Shown here: positions 4,791 to 31,572 of the stretch, one piece after another | How positions within the stretch are numbered: position 1 is the stretch's first letter | Layout: the number at the start of each line of letters is the position of its first letter | DNA from: Candidatus Bipolaricaulota bacterium | GTDB lineage: Bacteria > Bipolaricaulota > Bipolaricaulia > UBA7950 > UBA9294 | DNA length: 64,000 nucleotides | Assembly (NCBI GenBank): GCA_028278555.1 | Contig: JANQEA010000035.1 | Coordinates: 152,089-216,088 of the forward strand | Direction of reading: 5' to 3' | Notes under the pieces: generated by a model | What the model was told of the DNA's origin: nothing | Database searches by the model: none | Seen by the model: the letters and a program-made list of their open reading frames with translations, nothing else | Program-made: the position numbers and the translations under genes

Positions 4791-6170
4791 CTACCTCTTC
4801 AGCGCAGCCTTGACCAGCTGCCGACCTAGATCCCAGAGTCCGCCGCGGAGCTTGTGCGCTTTGTCGAGGGTCGCGTCAATGGCTGAGAGCGCGAAGTCCA
4901 CATCCTCGTCCGAGAGGATCAGCGGCGGGAGGAACTTGATGATGTTCACCCGGTGGCCCGACACCTGGGTGAGGAGCCGGTGGTCGCGCATCAGACCCAT
5001 GACAACGAGCTGGGCGAAGAGCCCGGCCTGCATCGTTTCGAGCGCCTTCCACGCCGCCTTCAGCTTGAGCGACTTCGGTGGCCCGAACTCCATCCCGATC
5101 ATCAGTCCCTTCCCGCGGACGTCGTGGAGCATCTCGTACCGCGACTGCATGTCACGGAGGCCGGCGAGGAGCCGCTCCCCCTGCCGAGCGGCATTCTCGA
5201 TCAGGTTCTCCGACTCCAGCACTTCGAGCGTCGCTAGGCCTGCCCCCATCGCCAGCTCGTTCATCCCGAACGTGTTCGAGTGGACGACGCACCGCTCGAG
5301 TCCGGAGAACGTCTTCTTGTGCAGGTCGCGGCGGATCAGGATCGCGCCGACCGGGATGAACCCGCCGGAGAGGGCCTTCGAGATCGGAACGATGTCCGGT
5401 TCGAGGCCCCAATGCTCGCCGCCGAAGAAGCGGCCGGTCCGGCCGAGTCCGGCCTGGATCTCGTCGACGATGAAGACCGTCCCGTGCTTCCGGCAGAGCC
5501 GCTGCGCCTCGGGGAGGTACTCGTCGTCCGGCATGTAGACGCCCTTTCCCTGGATCGGCTCGGCGATGAACGCGGCCACATCCGCGCGCTCAAGCTCGCG
5601 CTTGAGCGCGTTCAGGTCGTTCAACGGGACGCCCGTGGAGGGAAGGAGCTGTCCGAACCCCTCGCGGAAGTGCGGGCTCCCGTTCACCGAGAGGGCCCCG
5701 AGGGTGAGTCCATGGAACGCGTGATCGATGTAGACGAACCGGTCACGCTTCGTCGCGGCACGGGAGAACTTCAGCGATCCCTCGACCGCTTCGGCCCCGG
5801 AGTTGGTGAAGAAGACAGCGTCGAGCCCAGGGTAGCTACGCTGGGCCCGTTCGGTCAGTCGCTCGGCGAGGAGGCCGGCGAGGAGCGGACAGTCCATCTG
5901 GATCAGGTTTGGCCGATCGAGGTCGAGCAGTTGGTGAAGGGTCTCCTTCAGGACCGGATGGCTCCGGCCGACCTGGTAGACGCCGTAGCCGGAGAGGAAG
6001 TCGAGGTACCGATTCCCACCGTCGTCGTAGAGGTACGCCCCCTCGCCGCGTGTGTAGGCTACGTCGTAGTCGATGATCTGCAGGACCCTCGCCAACGCCG
6101 GATTGACGTGGCGCTTGTGCAATTCGATTTGTTCCCCGAGCCGTTCTTCGATCAGCTTCGCGATCTCCAT
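4791..6170 (-). CDS. Class III pyridoxal-phosphate aminotransferase (ornithine/GABA/putrescine aminotransferase-like)
   Basis: A 459-aa product with class III transaminase motifs (FTNSGAEAVE, DEIQAGLGRTG, pyridoxal-phosphate Lys region SKALSGG). Confidence 0.85.
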   Translation of the reverse strand: MEIAKLIEERLGEQIELHKRHVNPALARVLQIIDYDVAYTRGEGAYLYDDGGNRYLDFLSGYGVYQVGRSHPVLKETLHQLLDLDRPNLIQMDCPLLAGLLAERLTERAQRSYPGLDAVFFTNSGAEAVEGSLKFSRAATKRDRFVYIDHAFHGLTLGALSVNGSPHFREGFGQLLPSTGVPLNDLNALKRELERADVAAFIAEPIQGKGVYMPDDEYLPEAQRLCRKHGTVFIVDEIQAGLGRTGRFFGGEHWGLEPDIVPISKALSGGFIPVGAILIRRDLHKKTFSGLERCVVHSNTFGMNELAMGAGLATLEVLESENLIENAARQGERLLAGLRDMQSRYEMLHDVRGKGLMIGMEFGPPKSLKLKAAWKALETMQAGLFAQLVVMGLMRDHRLLTQVSGHRVNIIKFLPPLILSDEDVDFALSAIDATLDKAHKLRGGLWDLGRQLVKAALKR

Positions 6171-19269: not shown

Positions 19270-20910
19270 CTAGAGTTCGAGCGCCTGCCGCATCAGGCGC
19301 GGCGGGAGCGATCCTTGCGAGAGGAGGGTGTCGTGCATCTCGCGGAGGCTCGCGTCCGGATGCGCCTTCTTGTAGTCATCGATCAGATCGAGGATCTGGA
19401 GCTTCCCCATCAGATACGACTGGGGCTGCGTCGGCGTCTGCGTGTACCGCCGAACCTCGGCCGTCGCGTTTGCCGGCTCGAGCTGAACCTTCTCGACCAT
19501 GAAGTCGACCGCTTCCTGAACGGTCATTCCGCGGGTGTGAAGCGACACGTCGAGGATGATCCGCGCGGCACGCCAGAGCTGATCGTGAAGGCGTCCCAGC
19601 CGCTGGATCGGCTTGGCGATCCAGCCGAGCTGCTCCATCAGCTCTTCGCAGTAGAAGGCCCATCCCTCGATGAACAGCGTCGCCAGGAACGATCCCATCC
19701 GCCGCGGAATCGTTTCGGCTCGGTTCGCCCAGACGAGCTGCAAGTGATGCCCCGGATACGCCTCGTGGAGAGCGACAACGGGGAGCTTCACGTGGAAGTG
19801 CCCCTTCAGCTTCGCCTCCTTCTCCTCGTCCGACGCATTCGGATCGACCGGGGTGACGACGAAAATCCCATCCTGCTGTTCTTCGAAGATCCCGGCGTTC
19901 TGGTAGGCGGCGTAGGGGATGAGCGGGCGGATGTAGACGGGGGTCTCGATGATCTTGAGCGACTCGTCCTCGGGGATCGTGACGATCTCGTGATCGATCA
20001 CGTATTGCTTCGCACTCTCCATCGCCTCTTCGTACGCCCGGAGGAGTCCTTCGGCCGTCGGATGATCGTTCTTCGCTTCCTCGAGGAGCTCCTCGACCGA
20101 CTTCGTCGGATCGATCTCCTTCGCGACCTCCTCCATCTGCTTCTTGGTCAGCTCGAACTGCTCCCAGCCGACCTCGATCAATCGGTCGGCGTCGTAGTCG
20201 ACCATGTGGTTCTCGCGGAGGATCTCGTCGAAGAGTTCCTTCCCTACGGCGTACTCGCCTTCGGCGTTCGGGAGGACCTCGTCCCGGATGAACGCGACAT
20301 ACGCCTCCACGGCCTTCGCCGCCTCGGCGCCGACGGCGGCGATTTCCTCGGCGAGGTCGGGGGCCGCCTGCTGCGCAAGACCCGGCAGAAGCGCGCTGAA
20401 GAGCATCGGCGCCATCTGACCCTGTTCGAGTGCCGTCTCCGCCCAGACCCGCGGGACTTCGCTCGGTATGAGGACCGCCTTCGCCTCCTCGAGGACTCTC
20501 GGCACTTGGCGCGTCCGCTCGAGGGCCAGCTTCAACCGTTCGGGGAGCGGAGCGAAGTCCTTCATGAGAAGGAGGATCACGCTCCCGGTGGTCGCATCCA
20601 GGTATTGACCCGGGTTCCGGAACTGACCGCGCTGCTTCTCGTAGCCGCGGACGAAGCCTTTGAAGATCTGCGTCATCAGCGTGTGATCGACGACGGCATC
20701 GTTCGGCCAACCCGTTGTCTCCATCGCGCCCAGCTCGGTTAGGATCTCATGAATCTCTCCGTTCTGTGCATCCTGAGCCGCGCGTGTGAAATCGCCGAGT
20801 CGATCGTCGAAGCGATGATCTCCGAGTTGCGTCGCCGCGATCGGATTCAGCTCCATCAGCCGTTCGATCCAGGCGTCGGAGCGGTCGTAGAAGTGCTTCG
20901 GGTCCGTCAC
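19270..20910 (-). CDS. DUF885 family protein (metallopeptidase-like)
   Basis: Has the HEAYPGHHLQ motif characteristic of DUF885 and is 546 aa. Confidence 0.8.
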   Translation of the reverse strand: MTDPKHFYDRSDAWIERLMELNPIAATQLGDHRFDDRLGDFTRAAQDAQNGEIHEILTELGAMETTGWPNDAVVDHTLMTQIFKGFVRGYEKQRGQFRNPGQYLDATTGSVILLLMKDFAPLPERLKLALERTRQVPRVLEEAKAVLIPSEVPRVWAETALEQGQMAPMLFSALLPGLAQQAAPDLAEEIAAVGAEAAKAVEAYVAFIRDEVLPNAEGEYAVGKELFDEILRENHMVDYDADRLIEVGWEQFELTKKQMEEVAKEIDPTKSVEELLEEAKNDHPTAEGLLRAYEEAMESAKQYVIDHEIVTIPEDESLKIIETPVYIRPLIPYAAYQNAGIFEEQQDGIFVVTPVDPNASDEEKEAKLKGHFHVKLPVVALHEAYPGHHLQLVWANRAETIPRRMGSFLATLFIEGWAFYCEELMEQLGWIAKPIQRLGRLHDQLWRAARIILDVSLHTRGMTVQEAVDFMVEKVQLEPANATAEVRRYTQTPTQPQSYLMGKLQILDLIDDYKKAHPDASLREMHDTLLSQGSLPPRLMRQALEL

Positions 20911-20975
20911 GTCCCAACCTCCTTCTGATTCCTCATTTACATCTGTTTGTCGCAGCTCCGAAGCGTTCGGTTCAG

Positions 20976-21533
20976 CTAGACCTGATAACCGCTGATCTCA
21001 TCCTCCGTCGCCTCGACCCCGAGCCCGAGAACGATCCGGTTGACGAAGTTGAAGTAGGCGACAATCAGGGCGATTGAGAGGATGTCTTCATCGGAGAAGC
21101 CCGCTGTGCGGAGGGACTCGATGTCCTCCTCGATGACGTTCTCCGGGGTCTCGGTCAGCTTCTGCGCGTACTCGAGCGCGACCGTCATTTTCGGGCCGAC
21201 GTCGACCGCCTCGCGATCCTCGACGAAGCGGGCGAGACGTTCCGGATCGCGCCAGTAGTGTCCGAGCGCTTCGGCGTGATGGCGGATGCAATACGGACAG
21301 CGATTCGACGTCGAGACGACGACGGCGATCATCTCGCGCTCCTCGCGGGAGAGGTCGGACCGCGAGAACATCGTCGCCAGGTAGAGATCCATGTGCGCCG
21401 TCATCGCCTCCGGCCGAAGGCTGTGGACGGCCATGATGTTCGACAGCTTCCCGCGCTTCCCCTTGACCCTCTCGAACGCAGCGCGTAGTTCGTCGTCCGC
21501 CTCGTCTTCACCGATCACGCGGATCCAGGCCAT
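20976..21533 (-). CDS. Carboxymuconolactone decarboxylase/AhpD-like peroxidase-related family protein
   Basis: Has a CMD-domain CxxxH-like region (NRCPYCIRHH). A GAGGAGG ribosome-binding site precedes the ATG (MAWIRV) at 21533. Confidence 0.7.
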   Translation of the reverse strand: MAWIRVIGEDEADDELRAAFERVKGKRGKLSNIMAVHSLRPEAMTAHMDLYLATMFSRSDLSREEREMIAVVVSTSNRCPYCIRHHAEALGHYWRDPERLARFVEDREAVDVGPKMTVALEYAQKLTETPENVIEEDIESLRTAGFSDEDILSIALIVAYFNFVNRIVLGLGVEATEDEISGYQV

Positions 21534-21622
21534 CGATGCCTCCTCAGTCTGGCAGAATGGTCCGATCATATCCCGCCTCTTAGTGCGCATCAGCCGCTAT
21601 CGATCTCGCTCGCTCGATAGCC

Positions 21623-21650
21623 TTGACAATCGAATTCCGGAGCGTATACT
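21623..21650 (+). promoter_or_regulatory. Near-consensus sigma70 promoter (TTGACA-16 nt-TATACT)
   Basis: The -35 box TTGACA is at 21623-21628 and the -10 box TATACT at 21645-21650. It lies upstream of the membrane-protein/regulator operon. Confidence 0.6.
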
Positions 21651-21654
21651 GCAG

Positions 21655-21677
21655 AGTACTTTGCGCTGCAAAGTACT
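21655..21677 (+). promoter_or_regulatory. Perfect 23-bp palindromic operator AGTACTTTGC-GCT-GCAAAGTACT overlapping the transcription start
   Basis: Perfect 10-bp inverted repeats separated by 3 bp, immediately downstream of the -10 element. This is the typical position of a repressor operator. Confidence 0.55.
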
Positions 21678-21692
21678 TGACGGGAGAGAACT

Positions 21693-22352
21693 ATGAACCA
21701 ACTGAGTCTTCGAAACATCGAGCGCAAGAGCTGGCAAAGCACGATGGGCGGCGGGGTGATCGAGATCATGTTCGGGATCATGATGTTCGCCGGCGCGACG
21801 TCGTATCTCGTCTCCGATCTCGGCGCGCCATCCGCTGCGAGCACCGCTACGTTGATCGCCCTTCACGCCGTGGCGCTTCTATTGATGCTTTGGCTGCGGA
21901 AGCGATACGTCCTTCCGCGGGTCGGGCGGGCCGCCTTCTCGGCGAACCGAAAGCGGCGTCTCCATCGCATGCGGATCCTTCTGGGGATTTGCGTCGCGGT
22001 GACGGTCGCGCTCGTCGTGCTGACGGTCCTCGCAACGCGGACCGGGACCTCTCTCCTCGGGCCCGTTTCGGCCGCTCCCGTGGTTGCCGTCGTTGCCGTG
22101 ATCGTTCTCGTGCCGCTCGGCGCGCTCGCGATCTTCCTCGACTACCCTCGATTCCTCCTTCTTGGCGGATTGGTCGTCGGGGCGGAGGCGATCCTCGCGC
22201 TGCTCGACAAGTACGGTTCGCCGCCGTTCGACCGGACACTCGTCTTCGGCTCGATCGGCCTGATCAGTCTGATCCTCGGGTTGGTCATCTTCGCTCGCTT
22301 CCTCCGCCGCGTACCACGACCCGAACACGAGGTGATCGATCATGCCGGCTAG
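21693..22352 (+). CDS. Polytopic membrane protein, paralog A
   Basis: A GGGAGAG ribosome-binding site sits upstream. It has about 6 TM helices and a conserved VLPRVGRAAFSANRKRR loop. Confidence 0.6.
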   Translation: MNQLSLRNIERKSWQSTMGGGVIEIMFGIMMFAGATSYLVSDLGAPSAASTATLIALHAVALLLMLWLRKRYVLPRVGRAAFSANRKRRLHRMRILLGICVAVTVALVVLTVLATRTGTSLLGPVSAAPVVAVVAVIVLVPLGALAIFLDYPRFLLLGGLVVGAEAILALLDKYGSPPFDRTLVFGSIGLISLILGLVIFARFLRRVPRPEHEVIDHAG

Positions 22353-22971
22353 TCCGGGATTGAGGGAACTCGAGCGGCGCGTCTGGCTGCGGACATTCGA
22401 ACACGGGCTCTGGGACGTCGCCATCGGCCTGCTGTTACTGGCGTTCGGGATCGGCATCCTGACGGAGTTCTACTGGCTCTCCGCCATCATCGTTCCGGTC
22501 AGCCTGCCTGCGATGCGAGACCTTGCCCGACGGGCGATTGTCCCGAGGATCGGGCACGCGACGTTCCGCGGGCGGCGAAAGAGGAGCCTTGTTCACGTTC
22601 AGCTGATCCTGACCGGCCTCGCCGTCGCCGGTGCCGGGATGTTCGCGTTCACGAGCTTCGCGTCACGGGGGACGGCGCCCGACTGGATGCTCTGGATACG
22701 GTCTCACTTCATCGTCGTCATCGGGCTGATCTGGGGCGGGGCACTCGGCGTCGCCGGGTGGACCGTCGATTTTCCCCGTCTCTACGCGTACGGCGCGATC
22801 CTCTTCGGAGCTCTGCTCGCCGTCGACCTCATCCCATCCGGCTACCACCTTGCCCACGCGCTGATCGCCGTCGGCGGACTGATCGCGCTCGTCGGGGCCG
22901 CGCTGTTCATCCGCTTCACCCGTCGGTATCCGCGTCACCCCAAACCGCTCGAAGGAGCGGCCGATGACTGA
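22342..22971 (+). CDS. Polytopic membrane protein, paralog B
   Basis: Overlaps paralog A by 11 nt. Shares the loop motif IVPRIGHATFRGRRKRS and a DFPRLYAYG segment with paralog A. Confidence 0.6.
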   Translation: MPASPGLRELERRVWLRTFEHGLWDVAIGLLLLAFGIGILTEFYWLSAIIVPVSLPAMRDLARRAIVPRIGHATFRGRRKRSLVHVQLILTGLAVAGAGMFAFTSFASRGTAPDWMLWIRSHFIVVIGLIWGGALGVAGWTVDFPRLYAYGAILFGALLAVDLIPSGYHLAHALIAVGGLIALVGAALFIRFTRRYPRHPKPLEGAADD

Positions 22972-23284
22972 GGCGGAGCGCGACGATGCCCGCGGCCTGC
23001 AGATCGACCGCGCGATTCACGAGCCAGCACGCCTGCTGATCACCGCCCACCTCTACGTCGTCGAATCGGCCGACTACGTGTTCCTGATGGGGAACACCGG
23101 CCTGACATGGGGAAACCTCTCGTCGCACCTCTCCAAATTGGAGGCCACCGGCTACGTCGAGATCACCAAGGAGTTCGTCGAGAAGAAACCGCACACGATG
23201 GTCAAGCTGACGGAAGAAGGCCGGACGGCGTTCGACACCTATCGCCGCCAGATGAAGGCCCTGTTCGAGGATCTCCCGGACTGA
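22964..23284 (+). CDS. Winged-helix (HTH_34/ArsR-like) transcriptional regulator
   Basis: A 106-aa product with an HTH wing (GNTGLTWGNLSSHLSKLEATGYVEITKEF). It overlaps the upstream gene by 8 nt. Confidence 0.65.
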   Translation: MTEAERDDARGLQIDRAIHEPARLLITAHLYVVESADYVFLMGNTGLTWGNLSSHLSKLEATGYVEITKEFVEKKPHTMVKLTEEGRTAFDTYRRQMKALFEDLPD

Positions 23285-23316
23285 CAAGCGCAACCACCCG
23301 ATGGAGGAGGTGACCT

Positions 23317-23400
23317 ATGGAAGGAACCACGTGGATCCTGATCGGCCTCGGCGTTCTCGCCGTGATCGGCGCGATTATCCTCCTGTCACAGGCGAAGTAG
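23317..23400 (+). CDS. Predicted 27-aa single-TM micropeptide (MEGTTWILIGLGVLAVIGAIILLSQAK)
   Basis: A GGAGGAGG ribosome-binding site sits 5-8 nt upstream of the ATG. The product is one hydrophobic helix and is followed by a hairpin. It is not in the ORF track because it is under 60 aa. Confidence 0.3.
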   Translation: MEGTTWILIGLGVLAVIGAIILLSQAK

Positions 23401-23412
23401 AACATCTGGTCC

Positions 23413-23450
23413 GCCCGGTCGTTCTTCTTACGGCCGGGCATCTGTTTCCT
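23413..23450 (+). terminator. Hairpin after the micropeptide ORF (putative operon terminator)
   Basis: GCCCGGUC/GGCCGGGC forms an 8-bp stem with one G-U pair and an 11-nt loop, followed by AUCUGUUUCC. Confidence 0.35.
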
Positions 23451-23729
23451 CGACCGGATCGGCAATCCGAGATCGACGGCCAGGCTTCCGGACAGAAGGA
23501 CGGCGTCGATCACCCGGCTGAAGCTACCGGAACGTAAGCTTCACGGAACCGAGGTCGACTCGGACTCTCCAGCCTGTAGCCCCTATCGTGATGTACACAA
23601 CGACGTTCATGTCCCTCCTTGCACATCCAAGCGGTTCTCAGGACTGGCTCGTGAAGGTCGCATGCCGATTGCAGTGTAAGACCCAACCCTAATTCCGCGT
23701 AGCTCGTCTGTTCACATGAATGCTCAGAT

Positions 23730-23759
23730 TTGACATTCACAGAACTTCCATGATATACG
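23730..23759 (+). promoter_or_regulatory. Putative promoter of the glycine-rich protein gene (TTGACA -35, extended -10 TGaTATACG)
   Basis: Lies in an AT-rich region (about 40% GC). The spacer is 18 nt and a TG motif precedes the -10 hexamer. Confidence 0.4.
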
Positions 23760-23791
23760 GTCCCTGATTTCGACTATGGGAGATGGTTCAA

Positions 23792-25789
23792 ATGTCGAAA
23801 CTCGGGAAACGCATCTGCGTTGTGTGCGCGATCATCCTTGTGGCAGCTGTTGCTATGACCTGCGTTGCGCAGGAGTACGGAAAGGATAACCCACAAGCGT
23901 GGGGCGGATACCCTGAGGGATACAAGTTTGGTGCTGATGGAACCCAGCCGGATCATCCTGACGGATACGACGGCTGGCCAGCAGACCATCCCAACAATCC
24001 CAACAAGGGCTACGCCGGCAAAGGCGGCAAGGGCGCGGACGCGACTAAAGAAGGCCACGCAGCTGGGAATGGAGGGAAGGGTGGTGCTGGACCAAAGAAT
24101 GATGATGGCCCCCTTAATTCCTGGAACGGCGGCAAAGGCGGAGCCGGCGGAGGCAGCTCAGTTCCGGGAATACGCGGTGGAAATGGCGGCAAAGGCGGCG
24201 ATTCCACACACGGAGCCGGAGGCGATGGCGGCAATGGCGGCGATGGCGGCGAGGACGATGTGACGGTGAAGCACTCCGCCGGCGGTAACGGCGGCAAAGG
24301 CGGAGACAGCGTCAACGGTAACGGCGGCAAGGGCGGAGACGCTGGGAAGGGTAGCGACAGTGCGCCCGGCGGAAACGGCGGCGACGGAGGCACCAGCATT
24401 CATAAGACAGGAGGAGCGGGGGGTGACGGCGGCGACGGCGGCAGCAATGGCGAGGGTGGCAACGGAGGAAGTGGCGGTCACACGAGACATGGGACGGGCG
24501 GACCGGGCGGCAATGGCGGAAACGGCGGCGCGAGCAAGATTCCAGGACAGAAGGGAAAGACGGGAGGTGAGGGCGGCGATGGCGGCAATGGGTATGTCGG
24601 CGGTCCCTGCGACAAGGTAGGTAACGGGGCCGGAGGCAAGGGCGGACAAGGCGGGCAAGGCGGCGCGGGTTACTCTGGCGACGATGAGAACGACGCAACG
24701 GGCGGCGGGGATGGTGGGAAAGGCGGGGCCGGAGGAAATGCCGGAGACGGGGAAGATGCATCCGCGGGCAATGGCGGGGATGGTGGGAAAGGCGGCACAG
24801 CGAACAAGAAACCTGCAATTGGGGGCACTGGCGGGAAGGGTGGCAAGGGCGGCCGCTCTGGGCTCGGCAACAAAGGCGGCACTGGCGGAAAGGGTGGACC
24901 AGGAGGAGATGGACCAGACAAGCATGGCGGAGAAGGCGGGGCTCCTGGTGAAGGCGGAGACTATTCCCCATCTGGCCCCATGAAGCCTGGCAAAGGAGGC
25001 ATGGGTGGCAGCGGCGGAAAGGGAAGCCCCGAAAAAAAGGATCGAAGTCGTGAGAGAGGTGCCTCCGGCTCTTGTGTGAGATACGTCTGCCTTCCCTTCT
25101 CAGGTTTCGGATGGGAACGGGCTTGGACCTCGGACACTGATCGGGCCGAGTGTGTTGGCTTGGGCCTTTGCTGCGTCGGCCTAGATGTGGGCGTCGAAGT
25201 CGTGACAGTCGACCATGCCGGAATGCTGTCCGACATCATAGATCTCACACCACTGCTAGGCTGGTGGAGCAGCGAGTCGTACTCCCCGATGATCGGCGTG
25301 GCCATCACTGCGCTTCTCCCGGAATGCGGAACCGGGCTACCTCTTGTCGACATAGCCTATGGCTCGGCCAGCATCCCTGTGAGTGGTCACGCCGAGTGGA
25401 TCCTCGAAGATTCCGATTATGGACTCGCGGAGATCCAGGGCATCCTTGGCATAACCCGTGCGTCCTTGGGATTCGGGATGCGCATCGGTGCACTCTGCGA
25501 ATGCCCTGTGCTGACACCGTACGTCGACCTCAAAGCGGGAATCGCACAGTCGTGGTTAGAGTTCGAGGATGTCCAATCCGGGATGGATTCGGTAGATCTG
25601 CGGACACTGCTAGAAACTAACACAAGTGCTATCACACAGTACTACGTGCAAGCTTCCATGGGAGCCTCGTTCTCACTCGGTCCACAGCTTGACCTTCGTC
25701 TTGTCGGGACTGGAAGGATCTCGGGGGGAGCGGATCAATCAACCCATTTCGAGTTCGGGGGAAGTCTGTCACTGGGGCTCCGCTTCTAG
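23792..25789 (+). CDS. Secreted glycine-rich GGxGGxGG (PGRS-like) repeat protein with a C-terminal beta-barrel (autotransporter-like) domain
   Basis: Has a Sec signal peptide (MSKLGKRICVVCAIILVAAVAMTCVAQE). About 17 repeats of GG[NDTK]GG[KDNS]GG span residues about 75-410. The last 230 aa or so show alternating-hydrophobic beta-strands and end in LSLGLRF with a terminal Phe. Codon usage is atypical for the genome. Start is taken at the second ATG, 23792, which has the better ribosome-binding-site spacing. Confidence 0.65.
   Translation: MSKLGKRICVVCAIILVAAVAMTCVAQEYGKDNPQAWGGYPEGYKFGADGTQPDHPDGYDGWPADHPNNPNKGYAGKGGKGADATKEGHAAGNGGKGGAGPKNDDGPLNSWNGGKGGAGGGSSVPGIRGGNGGKGGDSTHGAGGDGGNGGDGGEDDVTVKHSAGGNGGKGGDSVNGNGGKGGDAGKGSDSAPGGNGGDGGTSIHKTGGAGGDGGDGGSNGEGGNGGSGGHTRHGTGGPGGNGGNGGASKIPGQKGKTGGEGGDGGNGYVGGPCDKVGNGAGGKGGQGGQGGAGYSGDDENDATGGGDGGKGGAGGNAGDGEDASAGNGGDGGKGGTANKKPAIGGTGGKGGKGGRSGLGNKGGTGGKGGPGGDGPDKHGGEGGAPGEGGDYSPSGPMKPGKGGMGGSGGKGSPEKKDRSRERGASGSCVRYVCLPFSGFGWERAWTSDTDRAECVGLGLCCVGLDVGVEVVTVDHAGMLSDIIDLTPLLGWWSSESYSPMIGVAITALLPECGTGLPLVDIAYGSASIPVSGHAEWILEDSDYGLAEIQGILGITRASLGFGMRIGALCECPVLTPYVDLKAGIAQSWLEFEDVQSGMDSVDLRTLLETNTSAITQYYVQASMGASFSLGPQLDLRLVGTGRISGGADQSTHFEFGGSLSLGLRF
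24000..25030 (+). repeat. Imperfect tandem DNA repeats (about 27-33 bp units, ggcggcaaaggcggngac-like) encoding the Gly-rich repeats
   Basis: GGCGGCAAAGGCGG and AATGGCGGCGA(T/C)GGCGG units recur through this interval. Confidence 0.6.
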
Positions 25790-29911: not shown

Positions 29912-30072
29912 ACGGCTCCGATTCGCACGGGGCGAGTATAGAGTCTTACCTTGCTGTGCCGCATTTCAGAAGTGTGAAGGGAGGCCATCGGCCTCCCTTC
30001 GCGGCACTCAGATTCGCAGCTCACCCACACGAGAACAGAGGCCATGCCACTGTTCTCGTCCGCGTCAGGGGG

Positions 30073-31572
30073 CTAGCCCCCTGACGCGAAGACGATGCGG
30101 AAGTCGGTCCTCCCGGGGAACGCCTTCAGCTCGAGGCCGTCGAACCGATCACTGTATGCCGCAACTGCGGCGAAGAAGTAGGGGATGATGACCGGCCCGC
30201 GCTCGATCAAGATCCGCTGGATCTCGGCGTATGCGGCGACACGCTCCGCTTCGTCGAGGGTCGTTCCGGCCGTTGCAGCGAGCCCGTCGAACTCGCTGTC
30301 GCAGAAGCGAGATTCATTCCACGACGCCGCGCACGTCAGCATCGAGTTCATGTAAAACTGCGGGTACGGACGCGATCCCCAGCCGGTGATCCCGAGCTCC
30401 TTGTCCATCCAGTGGTTCTCACCGTAGTAGATGGATTCTGGCTCGACGATCACGTTGACCGTGATCCCGGCTTCGGCCCACTGCTCCTTCAGGACGACCG
30501 CCAGGTCGGGTCGGCCACCGGTGTCCGGGGTGTAGAGATCGATCGTCAGACCGTCCGGGTATCCGGCGCTGGCAAGGAGGGCCTTGGCGGCGAGCGGATC
30601 CCGCGCCGGGATCGGGGTCGATTCATCGTAGTACTCGGCGTAGAGCGGGCCGACCGGGCTATCCCGCCCGACGGCGCCGAGCCCGAGCTGAACGATCTGG
30701 AAGATCGCCTCGCGATCGGTCGCGAGCTTCATCGCCTCGATAACGAGTGGATCGTTCCCCGGTGGAATGTCGGAGCGGAGCCGGACGAGGTCGAATCCGT
30801 TCGTCGGCACGTCGACGGCAACGATTCCCGGCTCACCTTGAAGCGTGAGGAAAAGGGCCGACGACATCCGCCACGCCATGTCGACCTGCCCGCCGCGGAG
30901 CGCGTCGACCGATGCAACCTGATCGCCGAAGAAGATGAACTGCAGGCCGTCGATTCGCGGGAGACCCTCAATGAAGTAGTCCGAATTCGCCCGCATCACG
31001 ATCCGATCTTCCGGACGGTAGTCCTCGACGATGAACGGACCGGTCCCGTTGAATGCCAAGAAGTCGGTCGTCCCTCGCTTAACGATCAACGCGTGGTTGT
31101 CGCTCAGATCGTAGAGGAAGAACGGATTCGGCTCCTTCAGCTGGAACGTCACTTCGTTCGGCCCGGTGACGTCGATCCTGTCGACGTTGGCGTAGACCGA
31201 CTCGGTTGCGAACCCATTCTCCGGATCGCGGAGCCGATCGAAGGTCCAGGCGACGTCGCCAGGGACGAGCGGGCTCCCGTCGTGGAATCGAATCCCTTCC
31301 GTCAGGATGAACGTGTACTCCGTTCCGTCCTCGCTGACGACCCAGGTTGCCGCCAATCGCGGAATGATTCGGCTTCCAGCATCGACATCGACCAGGTAGT
31401 CGTAGACCGCATTTGCTACCGCGACCTCCGCGTCCGAAGAGATCAGCGCCGGATCAACCTGAACGATCGGCTGCATCGCAACGCGGAAGACCGACTCAGC
31501 GAGAGCGGCGCCCTGAATGCTCAGCAGGAGTACCACCGCCAACAGAAAGACTCGGACGATTCCTCTACGCAT
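30073..31572 (-). CDS. ABC transporter substrate-binding protein, family 5 (DppA/OppA-like)
   Basis: An AAGGAGGA ribosome-binding site precedes the ATG (MRRGIVRVFLLAVVLLLS signal peptide). The mature protein is about 500 aa. Confidence 0.8.
   Translation of the reverse strand: MRRGIVRVFLLAVVLLLSIQGAALAESVFRVAMQPIVQVDPALISSDAEVAVANAVYDYLVDVDAGSRIIPRLAATWVVSEDGTEYTFILTEGIRFHDGSPLVPGDVAWTFDRLRDPENGFATESVYANVDRIDVTGPNEVTFQLKEPNPFFLYDLSDNHALIVKRGTTDFLAFNGTGPFIVEDYRPEDRIVMRANSDYFIEGLPRIDGLQFIFFGDQVASVDALRGGQVDMAWRMSSALFLTLQGEPGIVAVDVPTNGFDLVRLRSDIPPGNDPLVIEAMKLATDREAIFQIVQLGLGAVGRDSPVGPLYAEYYDESTPIPARDPLAAKALLASAGYPDGLTIDLYTPDTGGRPDLAVVLKEQWAEAGITVNVIVEPESIYYGENHWMDKELGITGWGSRPYPQFYMNSMLTCAASWNESRFCDSEFDGLAATAGTTLDEAERVAAYAEIQRILIERGPVIIPYFFAAVAAYSDRFDGLELKAFPGRTDFRIVFASGG

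Follow-up and report, generated by a model that had tools for sequence, protein, structure and literature searches.

A conserved palindrome at the promoter of a membrane-protein operon, a probable operator for the HTH_34 regulator encoded in the same operon

The perfect 23-bp palindrome AGTACTTTGC-GCT-GCAAAGTACT, located at positions 21655..21677 of the window (i.e. the whole 64 kb stretch of DNA that was analysed), is probably the operator by which a 106-aa winged-helix protein of the HTH_34 family binds and represses its own operon. According to the mechanism proposed here from sequence comparisons, a dimer of this protein would place its two recognition helices (residues ~49-62) in successive major grooves, where they would contact the hexamers ACTTTG (21658-21663) and CAAAGT (21669-21674). 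As the site lies 4 nt after the -10 box and over the predicted transcription start, the bound dimer should block RNA polymerase; by covering the -10/+1 region, it would either exclude the polymerase or stop the formation of the open complex. The genes repressed in this manner would be those of two membrane proteins, of the regulator itself and of a 27-aa microprotein, leading to a negative feedback. The co-encoded membrane proteins would deliver the inducing signal, for example by holding the repressor at the membrane (sequestration), a role proposed because the regulator lacks a sensor domain and because its translation is always coupled to theirs.

Negative autoregulation by promoter occlusion is a textbook mechanism and is not new. 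What is unusual is the extent of the conservation of the protein and of its putative operator across bacterial phyla and archaea, together with partner proteins that have not been named. For one clade of HTH_34 regulators, the locus supplies a precise candidate operator (ACTTTG-N5-CAAAGT) placed at a defined distance from its promoter. The recognition helix and the DNA site of this clade have hardly changed, while the promoter has switched between the sigma-70 and the TATA types. This would be a natural case in which a single repressor-operator pair serves two distinct transcription machineries. The locus also offers a starting point for studying what the unnamed membrane-protein family and the conserved 27-aa microprotein do.

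Promoter, palindrome and operon in the window

The promoter comprises a -35 hexamer TTGACA (21623..21628, plus strand) and, after a 16-nt spacer, a -10 hexamer TATACT (21645..21650, plus strand), both identified by reading the sequence and by a promoter scan. It scores 11/12 as a sigma-70-like promoter and is the sole such site that the scan found in 20500-24000, in agreement with the preliminary description of this DNA, which had already given both hexamers and their spacing. The arms of the palindrome (21655-21664 and 21668-21677; unstranded), which had been described as perfectly symmetric, are indeed 10 bp long and 100% complementary in the repeat analysis. By contrast, the palindrome had been said to follow TATACT at once, and this has to be corrected: 4 nt, GCAG (21651-21654), intervene, and the gap is itself conserved, with the consensus rCAr. 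The earlier placing of the palindrome over the +1 agrees with the promoter geometry, which predicts that transcription starts at about 21655-21658, 6-8 nt past the -10 box and within the left arm. The palindrome ends 15 nt before an ATG at 21693, and a Shine-Dalgarno-like GGGAGAG (21682..21688, plus strand) is found 4 nt before this ATG.

The putative operator core, ACTTTG-N5-CAAAGT (21658..21674, unstranded), has its two hexamer centres 11 bp apart, i.e. about one helical turn, which is the spacing looked for in a repressor-operator pair. An auxiliary half-site, CAGAGT (21652..21657, unstranded; consensus CArAGT), recognized by repeat analysis and in the site alignment, is present on the promoter-proximal side. 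Combined with 21658-21663, it makes up another palindrome, which overlaps the first, and it recurs as a direct repeat at 21669-21674 with a spacing of 17 bp. Longer direct repeats, CTGCAGAGTACTT (21649-21661) and CTGCAAAGTACTT (21666-21678), are likewise 17 bp apart. Therefore, the region can be read as a series of four hexamers: CAGAGT, ACTTTG, (N5), CAAAGT and ACTTGA.

The perfect symmetry of the arms had also been put forward as rare by chance. When perfect inverted repeats are counted (arm length of 10 bp or more, loop no longer than 10 nt), this holds against shuffled sequences, which contain only 0-5 of them, but not within the window, where 28 overlapping matches correspond to about 16 distinct repeats. 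Therefore, symmetry alone is weak evidence for an operator. The palindrome is set apart from the other inverted repeats of the window by its richness in AT (the window has 63% GC), by its position at a promoter and by its phylogenetic conservation. The approximately 15 others, at 5585, 8188, 8220, 15774, 19232, 29976, 30061, 31800, 40872, 42599, 43808, 44957, 52405, 60418 and 63000, are mostly GC-rich, such as the palindrome with 14-bp arms CGCGTCAGGGGGCTAGCCCCCTGACGCG at 30061-30088. A second perfect palindrome of the same intergenic region, GCTATCGA-N10-TCGATAGC (21596-21621), abuts the -35 box and is not conserved among the closest orthologous loci. A reading of the 23-bp palindrome as a terminator was also considered and rejected: its stem is AT-rich (3/10 G-C pairs) and is followed by TGACGGGAG, it is located between two gene starts, and it is absent from the results of the terminator scan.

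The operon located downstream on the plus strand begins with gene 1 (21693..22352) and gene 2 (22342..22971), which overlaps gene 1 by 11 nt; they encode membrane proteins of 219 and 209 aa, respectively, each predicted to have six helices. Gene 2 is a paralogue of gene 1 (28% identity, E = 5e-14), and neither matches any family above cut-off in Pfam, NCBIfam or PADLOC. All 21 proteins retrieved by a search for homologues of gene 1 are labelled 'hypothetical', and the AF2 model of its product has a low confidence (pLDDT 54). In the closest loci (L001-L006 of the comparison presented below), a TGACGGGAGAG stretch near the ribosome-binding site is conserved. Gene 3 (22964..23284), which overlaps gene 2 by 8 nt, encodes the 106-aa HTH_34 protein, so that the earlier assignment of a winged-helix regulator to the third gene of the operon is confirmed. 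A fourth gene (23317..23400, plus strand), preceded by the strong ribosome-binding site GGAGGAGG, is probably also part of the operon. This ORF, missing from the ORF list, would encode a 27-aa microprotein made of a single hydrophobic helix, MEGTTWILIGLGVLAVIGAIILLSQAK, and a related protein is conserved directly 3' of the regulator in the 16 loci showing it (L001 and L003-L018). The operon could end at a terminator-like GC-rich hairpin with a weak T-run (23413..23439, plus strand) seen in a consensus scan only. Further downstream, a 668-aa ORF (23783-25789, plus strand), which carries a long region of glycine-rich GGxGGxGG repeats and whose C-terminal part ends with SLGLRF, has no Pfam match.

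On the other side of the palindrome, a divergent gene (20976-21533, minus strand) encodes a CMD/AhpD-like 'peroxidase-related enzyme' (TIGR01926, 155 bits). Its start is most probably at 21533, according to the profile alignment and to a GAGGAGG motif. The possibility that the operator chiefly serves this gene was rejected: the gene occupies this divergent position in just 4 other loci (L002, L006, L010 and L130), and the promoter scan found no minus-strand promoter in 20500-24000. It may be co-regulated in this lineage and lies outside the conserved module.

The regulator and its association with the site

The 106-aa protein matches the HTH_34 profile (PF13601) with 85 bits for a cut-off of 27, over profile positions 2-79 of 80. 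Its scores remain below the cut-offs of the PadR profile (17.8 bits versus 27), of the ArsR profile HTH_5 (16.2 versus 22) and of the NCBIfam profile HTH_metalloreg (20.3 versus 55). No MarR family is found among its Pfam matches, and MarR proteins appear only as weak matches to PDB chains (E about 5e-5). The AF2 model (pLDDT 86) displays a winged helix-turn-helix (wHTH) followed by a long C-terminal helix, in the order H-H-E-H-H-E-E-H, and is devoid of any sensor domain. The nearest solved relatives are dimeric wHTH regulators, several of which (MftR, AbfR, OhrR and HsmR) have been solved on palindromic operators; among the fold neighbours, 1UB9 is followed by PadR proteins of the short type and by repressors of the MarR family. 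Neither a characterised HTH_34 member nor an HTH_34 binding site was found in the collections of papers and structures searched, and the literature on HTH_34/PF13601, on PH1061/1UB9, on the motif or on DUF4153/CreD with a winged helix provided nothing relevant.

A search for homologues returned 4,889 matches, the best 120 of the 4,889 being 74-100% identical to the regulator. Between bacterial phyla and several archaeal lineages, the identity reaches 56-91%. The region of the recognition helix (about residues 49-62, WGNLSSHLSKLE) is invariant, as LTWGNLSSHLS-LE, in an alignment of 26 orthologues, and the helix is still 80-99% conserved per column in regulators that are encoded beside the same DNA motif and are only 26-43% identical overall.

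The neighbourhood of the regulator gene was compared in 81 loci, 80 of which come from a regulator-anchored scan of a genome collection, the last one being the window. The bacterial MAGs are labelled as Bipolaricaulota/'Thermotogae', Chloroflexota, Atribacteria, Acidobacteriota and Neomarinimicrobiota, and the archaeal ones as Thor-, Heimdall-, Bathy-, Micr- and Undinarchaeota and Halobacteriota. In order to limit selection bias, only the core ACTTTG-N5-CAAAGT was searched for, with at most one mismatch. It was found exactly once in 65 of the 81 loci, always upstream of the regulator, for a total of 1.2 matches in shuffled loci. In most loci, a palindrome like that of the window lies 0.65-2.1 kb upstream of the regulator gene, separated from it by one to three genes encoding membrane proteins of about 200-230 aa. 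The core columns are invariant or nearly so across the 65 sites, C21659 (C5), G21663, C21669 and G21673 (G19) being invariant. Among the 16 loci devoid of a core match, 8 are carried by contigs cut off upstream and 2 have a site with two mismatches in the right place. A degenerate CAAAGA-N11-CAAAGT repeat is retained in L035-L037, no site is found in L004, L034 and L073, and L076 shows a lone match with two mismatches downstream of the regulator. Globally, a clear operator site is absent from 6 of the 81 orthologous loci.

A reciprocal test started from the motif: a scan of metagenomes for AGTACTTTG-N5-CAAAGTACT alone returned at least 120 contigs, of which 120 were sorted. Sixty of them encode an HTH_34 relative, whose gene is located downstream of the site in 53 cases (median distance of 617 bp). 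Thirteen others carry the membrane-protein gene and end before the regulator, so that 73 of the 120 contigs harbour genes of the module. Whereas 39 contigs are too short on one side to be judged, 8 have flanks of at least 2.5 kb on both sides and carry neither HTH_34 nor other module genes. Therefore, the motif also occurs away from the regulator gene; these regulator-free sites may be members of its regulon or may be shared with another factor.

The existence of such contigs would fit a reading in which the palindrome is the operator of a different transcription factor, encoded elsewhere, while the HTH_34 protein has another target; the site of L200, which adjoins a PadR-family gene, would also be in keeping with it. 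This reading is nevertheless unlikely, as the site and the regulator gene are associated in both the regulator-anchored and the motif-anchored sets, across phyla and in both domains, and as this association persists although the intervening genes vary in number and belong to at least two families. Furthermore, these loci share no other conserved regulator gene, and the site and the recognition helix are equally invariant.

The preliminary description had seen in the palindrome the site of a dimeric repressor, had proposed the protein encoded by the third gene as its binder and had suggested a search for further copies. Comparative data now support the first proposal through the 65 loci sharing site and regulator and through the fixed position of the site at the promoter, and the second through the co-occurrence of the site with this very gene and the invariance of the recognition helix; both the identity of the binder and repression as the sign of its effect are inferred from sequence comparisons. 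Within the window, searches with the 23-mer, the half-site and the core, with up to 3 mismatches, revealed no further operator copy, the 23-mer being unique in the 64 kb even with 3 mismatches allowed (none in shuffles). However, the site occurs many times in other genomes, and these occurrences outweigh the missing second copy.

Promoter geometry, half-sites and the level of constraint

A sigma-70 promoter scoring at least 8/12 is found in 45 of the 46 bacterial loci, with a -10 box that ends 3-8 nt (mode 4) before the palindrome; a TTGACA-like hexamer is present at the same relative position, also in 45 of the 46. The information content of the region was computed over 59, then 123 oriented sites. 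The alignment displays a TAnnnT signal at -9 to -4 relative to the palindrome and a conserved rCAr at -3 to 0, outside the positions used for the selection of the sites: C is found at -2 in 80 and A at -1 in 102 of these 123 sites, while the signal at the mirror positions 24-26 is weak. The hexamers at 4-9 and 15-20 are near-invariant, and weaker signals are seen at 21-26 and 32-36.

The archaeal loci show another arrangement. In all seven loci from Thorarchaeota (L029, L039, L043, L052, L059, L063 and L067), a TATA-like box is located 14-15 nt upstream of the palindrome. In Halobacteriota/Bathyarchaeia (L023, L051, L053 and L078), the TATA-like box immediately follows the palindrome and is itself followed by further CAAAGT half-sites. 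The pair formed by the protein and the site is thus kept while the promoter type switches with the domain, sigma-70 versus TATA, which argues that the archaeal labels are not simply due to binning errors.

The promoter geometry also bears on the sign of the effect. Some archaeal activators bind just upstream of the TATA box, and the main palindrome of Halobacteriota/Bathyarchaeia occupies such a position, as would be expected if the HTH_34 protein bound the palindrome as an activator or with a dual role. This appears quite unlikely, since these archaeal loci also have half-sites downstream of the TATA-like box and since the bacterial sites begin just past the -10 box and cover the predicted start. 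A protein bound at such a place is expected to block RNA polymerase. Moreover, the near-consensus promoter of the window should need no activation. Repression by occlusion is therefore retained as the probable effect, with a start site predicted from the promoter geometry.

The auxiliary CArAGT (21652-21657) and the weaker half-sites found every 17 bp suggest that more dimers could bind, which would be aligned beside the first one. As the half-sites repeat every 17 bp, the 12-14-bp palindrome CAAAGT|ACTTTG was also considered as the binding unit. It is less likely, as the strongly conserved hexamers are those of the inner pair, 11 bp apart; half-site centres separated by 6 bp are ill-suited to a wHTH dimer. 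Some loci carry two overlapping full palindromes offset by exactly 17 bp (L163, 4775-4814; L136, 436-475; L022, L031 and L074), an offset that matches the 17-bp half-site repeat of the window.

The level at which the palindrome is constrained can be deduced from the pattern of its changes. Counts by column pair and by structure pair agree: 83.4% of the cells can pair versus 81.8% in shuffled alignments, and pairs in which both positions have changed number 3 versus 4.4 in shuffles, i.e. there is no excess of compensatory changes. The six core pairs are either invariant or broken without compensation; pair 4/20 is found as A-C 8 times and as G-T 5 times, and pair 7/17 as C-A 6 times. The pair that would close a loop varies independently (C-A 18, T-G 17, C-G 16 and T-A 10). 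Only the two outer pairs (positions 1-2 with 22-23) show a symmetric co-variation above shuffles, which can reflect co-evolution with a dimer or shared ancestry, and which a hairpin would show as well. The arms are therefore conserved as a sequence without compensatory change, which places the constraint on double-stranded DNA and not on an RNA hairpin.

These data make it very unlikely that the palindrome works as RNA, through a 5'-terminal stem-loop that would modulate the stability or translation of the mRNA, instead of as protein-bound DNA. Admittedly, the transcribed 23-mer can form a 10-bp stem, and the outer arm positions co-vary to some extent. However, the fold of 21655-21720, although its MFE reaches -14.3 kcal/mol, is unremarkable (z = -1.39), no Rfam match was found in 21300-22000 at E <= 1, and the stem does not reach the ribosome-binding site. 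Furthermore, the predicted start falls within the left arm in bacteria, and within the palindrome or past it in archaea, so that the full stem would be left untranscribed. As for a merely incidental palindrome, either a chance inverted repeat or one of the hairpin-forming repeats that the window contains in number (about 16, as mentioned above), this reading has a negligible probability and is refuted by conservation: the sequence recurs, at an unchanged place relative to the promoter, in 65 orthologous loci, and it is found on at least 120 metagenome contigs, for about one match expected by chance over all loci.

Possible wider regulon and relationships with known systems

Several observations suggest that the operator may also control genes located outside of the module. 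In eight distant HTH_34 loci (L115, L118, L127, L141, L142, L144, L170 and L183), the operator is present twice, at an interval of about 1 kb: the first copy precedes a gene of about 200 aa and the regulator, whereas the second is located directly after the regulator gene. This second site precedes creD-like genes in three or more lineages, uppS in L142 and L170, or the gene of an unnamed 260-aa protein in L118. Exact copies of the palindrome also occur on metagenome contigs that lack the regulator, in the promoter regions of genes related to isoprenoids, the envelope and the membrane. In three lineages, 55-62% identical (L086, L100 and L195), the site directly follows sigma-70 promoters of ispH/lytB. 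It adjoins htrA-like protease genes in two lineages (L086 and L112) and uppS in two lineages, including the regulator-free contig L121, and it also adjoins a DUF4153 gene in L172 and, on contigs selected by the motif, a gene of the unnamed 260-aa family. Such a wider regulon is only a lead, because the contigs selected by the motif alone cannot be assigned to regulator-bearing genomes.

A broader proposal can be formulated from these data, although it is doubtful at this stage. The HTH_34 regulator, its membrane partner(s) and ACTTTG-N5-CAAAGT might constitute an ancient signalling module of Bacteria and Archaea, in which the membrane proteins would sense the state of the envelope or of isoprenoid lipid carriers and would release or capture the repressor, and which would control a wider regulon in many lineages.

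Among proteins of solved structure, the closest relative by sequence (E = 1e-6) is PH1061 from Pyrococcus horikoshii (1UB9), described as a 'transcriptional regulator homologue', whose fold superposes on that of the regulator with a TM of 0.80-0.85 and 29% identity. Both are proteins of about 100 aa that consist of a wHTH and a C-terminal helix and lack any ligand-binding domain. The literature searched mentions no DNA target, operon role or signal for PH1061. Unlike PH1061, the present regulator is part of a clade with much stronger conservation, whose members are invariably found with membrane-protein genes and a defined operator.

Short PadR regulators, such as Rv3488, are also small wHTH dimers with a C-terminal dimerisation helix (TM of 0.67-0.70). 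PadR regulators commonly control their own expression through a palindrome in their promoter, and their genes are frequently neighbours of membrane-protein genes. However, the present regulator, with its subthreshold Pfam PadR score, is not a member of this family by that criterion, and the consensus pair of PadR half-sites, ATGT-N8-ACAT, differs from ACTTTG-N5-CAAAGT. The MarR repressors, including OhrR (OhrR-ohrA, 1Z9C), AbfR, MftR and HsmR, have a related fold and bind as dimeric wHTH proteins to an inverted repeat overlapping the -10 box and the start of the operon that they control. They are longer (about 140-160 aa), and their N- and C-terminal helices form a dimer interface that senses ligands or redox state, whereas the present regulator has no such domain in its 106 aa. 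The ArsR/SmtB proteins are small wHTH repressors that act on imperfect inverted repeats over their own promoters; the present regulator falls below the HTH_5 and metalloregulator cut-offs, although some data sources label its homologues as 'ArsR family'.

For the signal step, the sequestration of Mlc by PtsG and the BlaI/MecI repressors with BlaR1/MecR1 provide cases in which an integral membrane protein controls a sensorless repressor or is encoded together with it. The likeness to Mlc-PtsG and BlaI-BlaR1 is used here as a working hypothesis, by analogy for this step only and with no implication of homology. Globally, the proposed system would work like an autorepression of the MarR, PadR or ArsR type, carried out by a protein that belongs to HTH_34.
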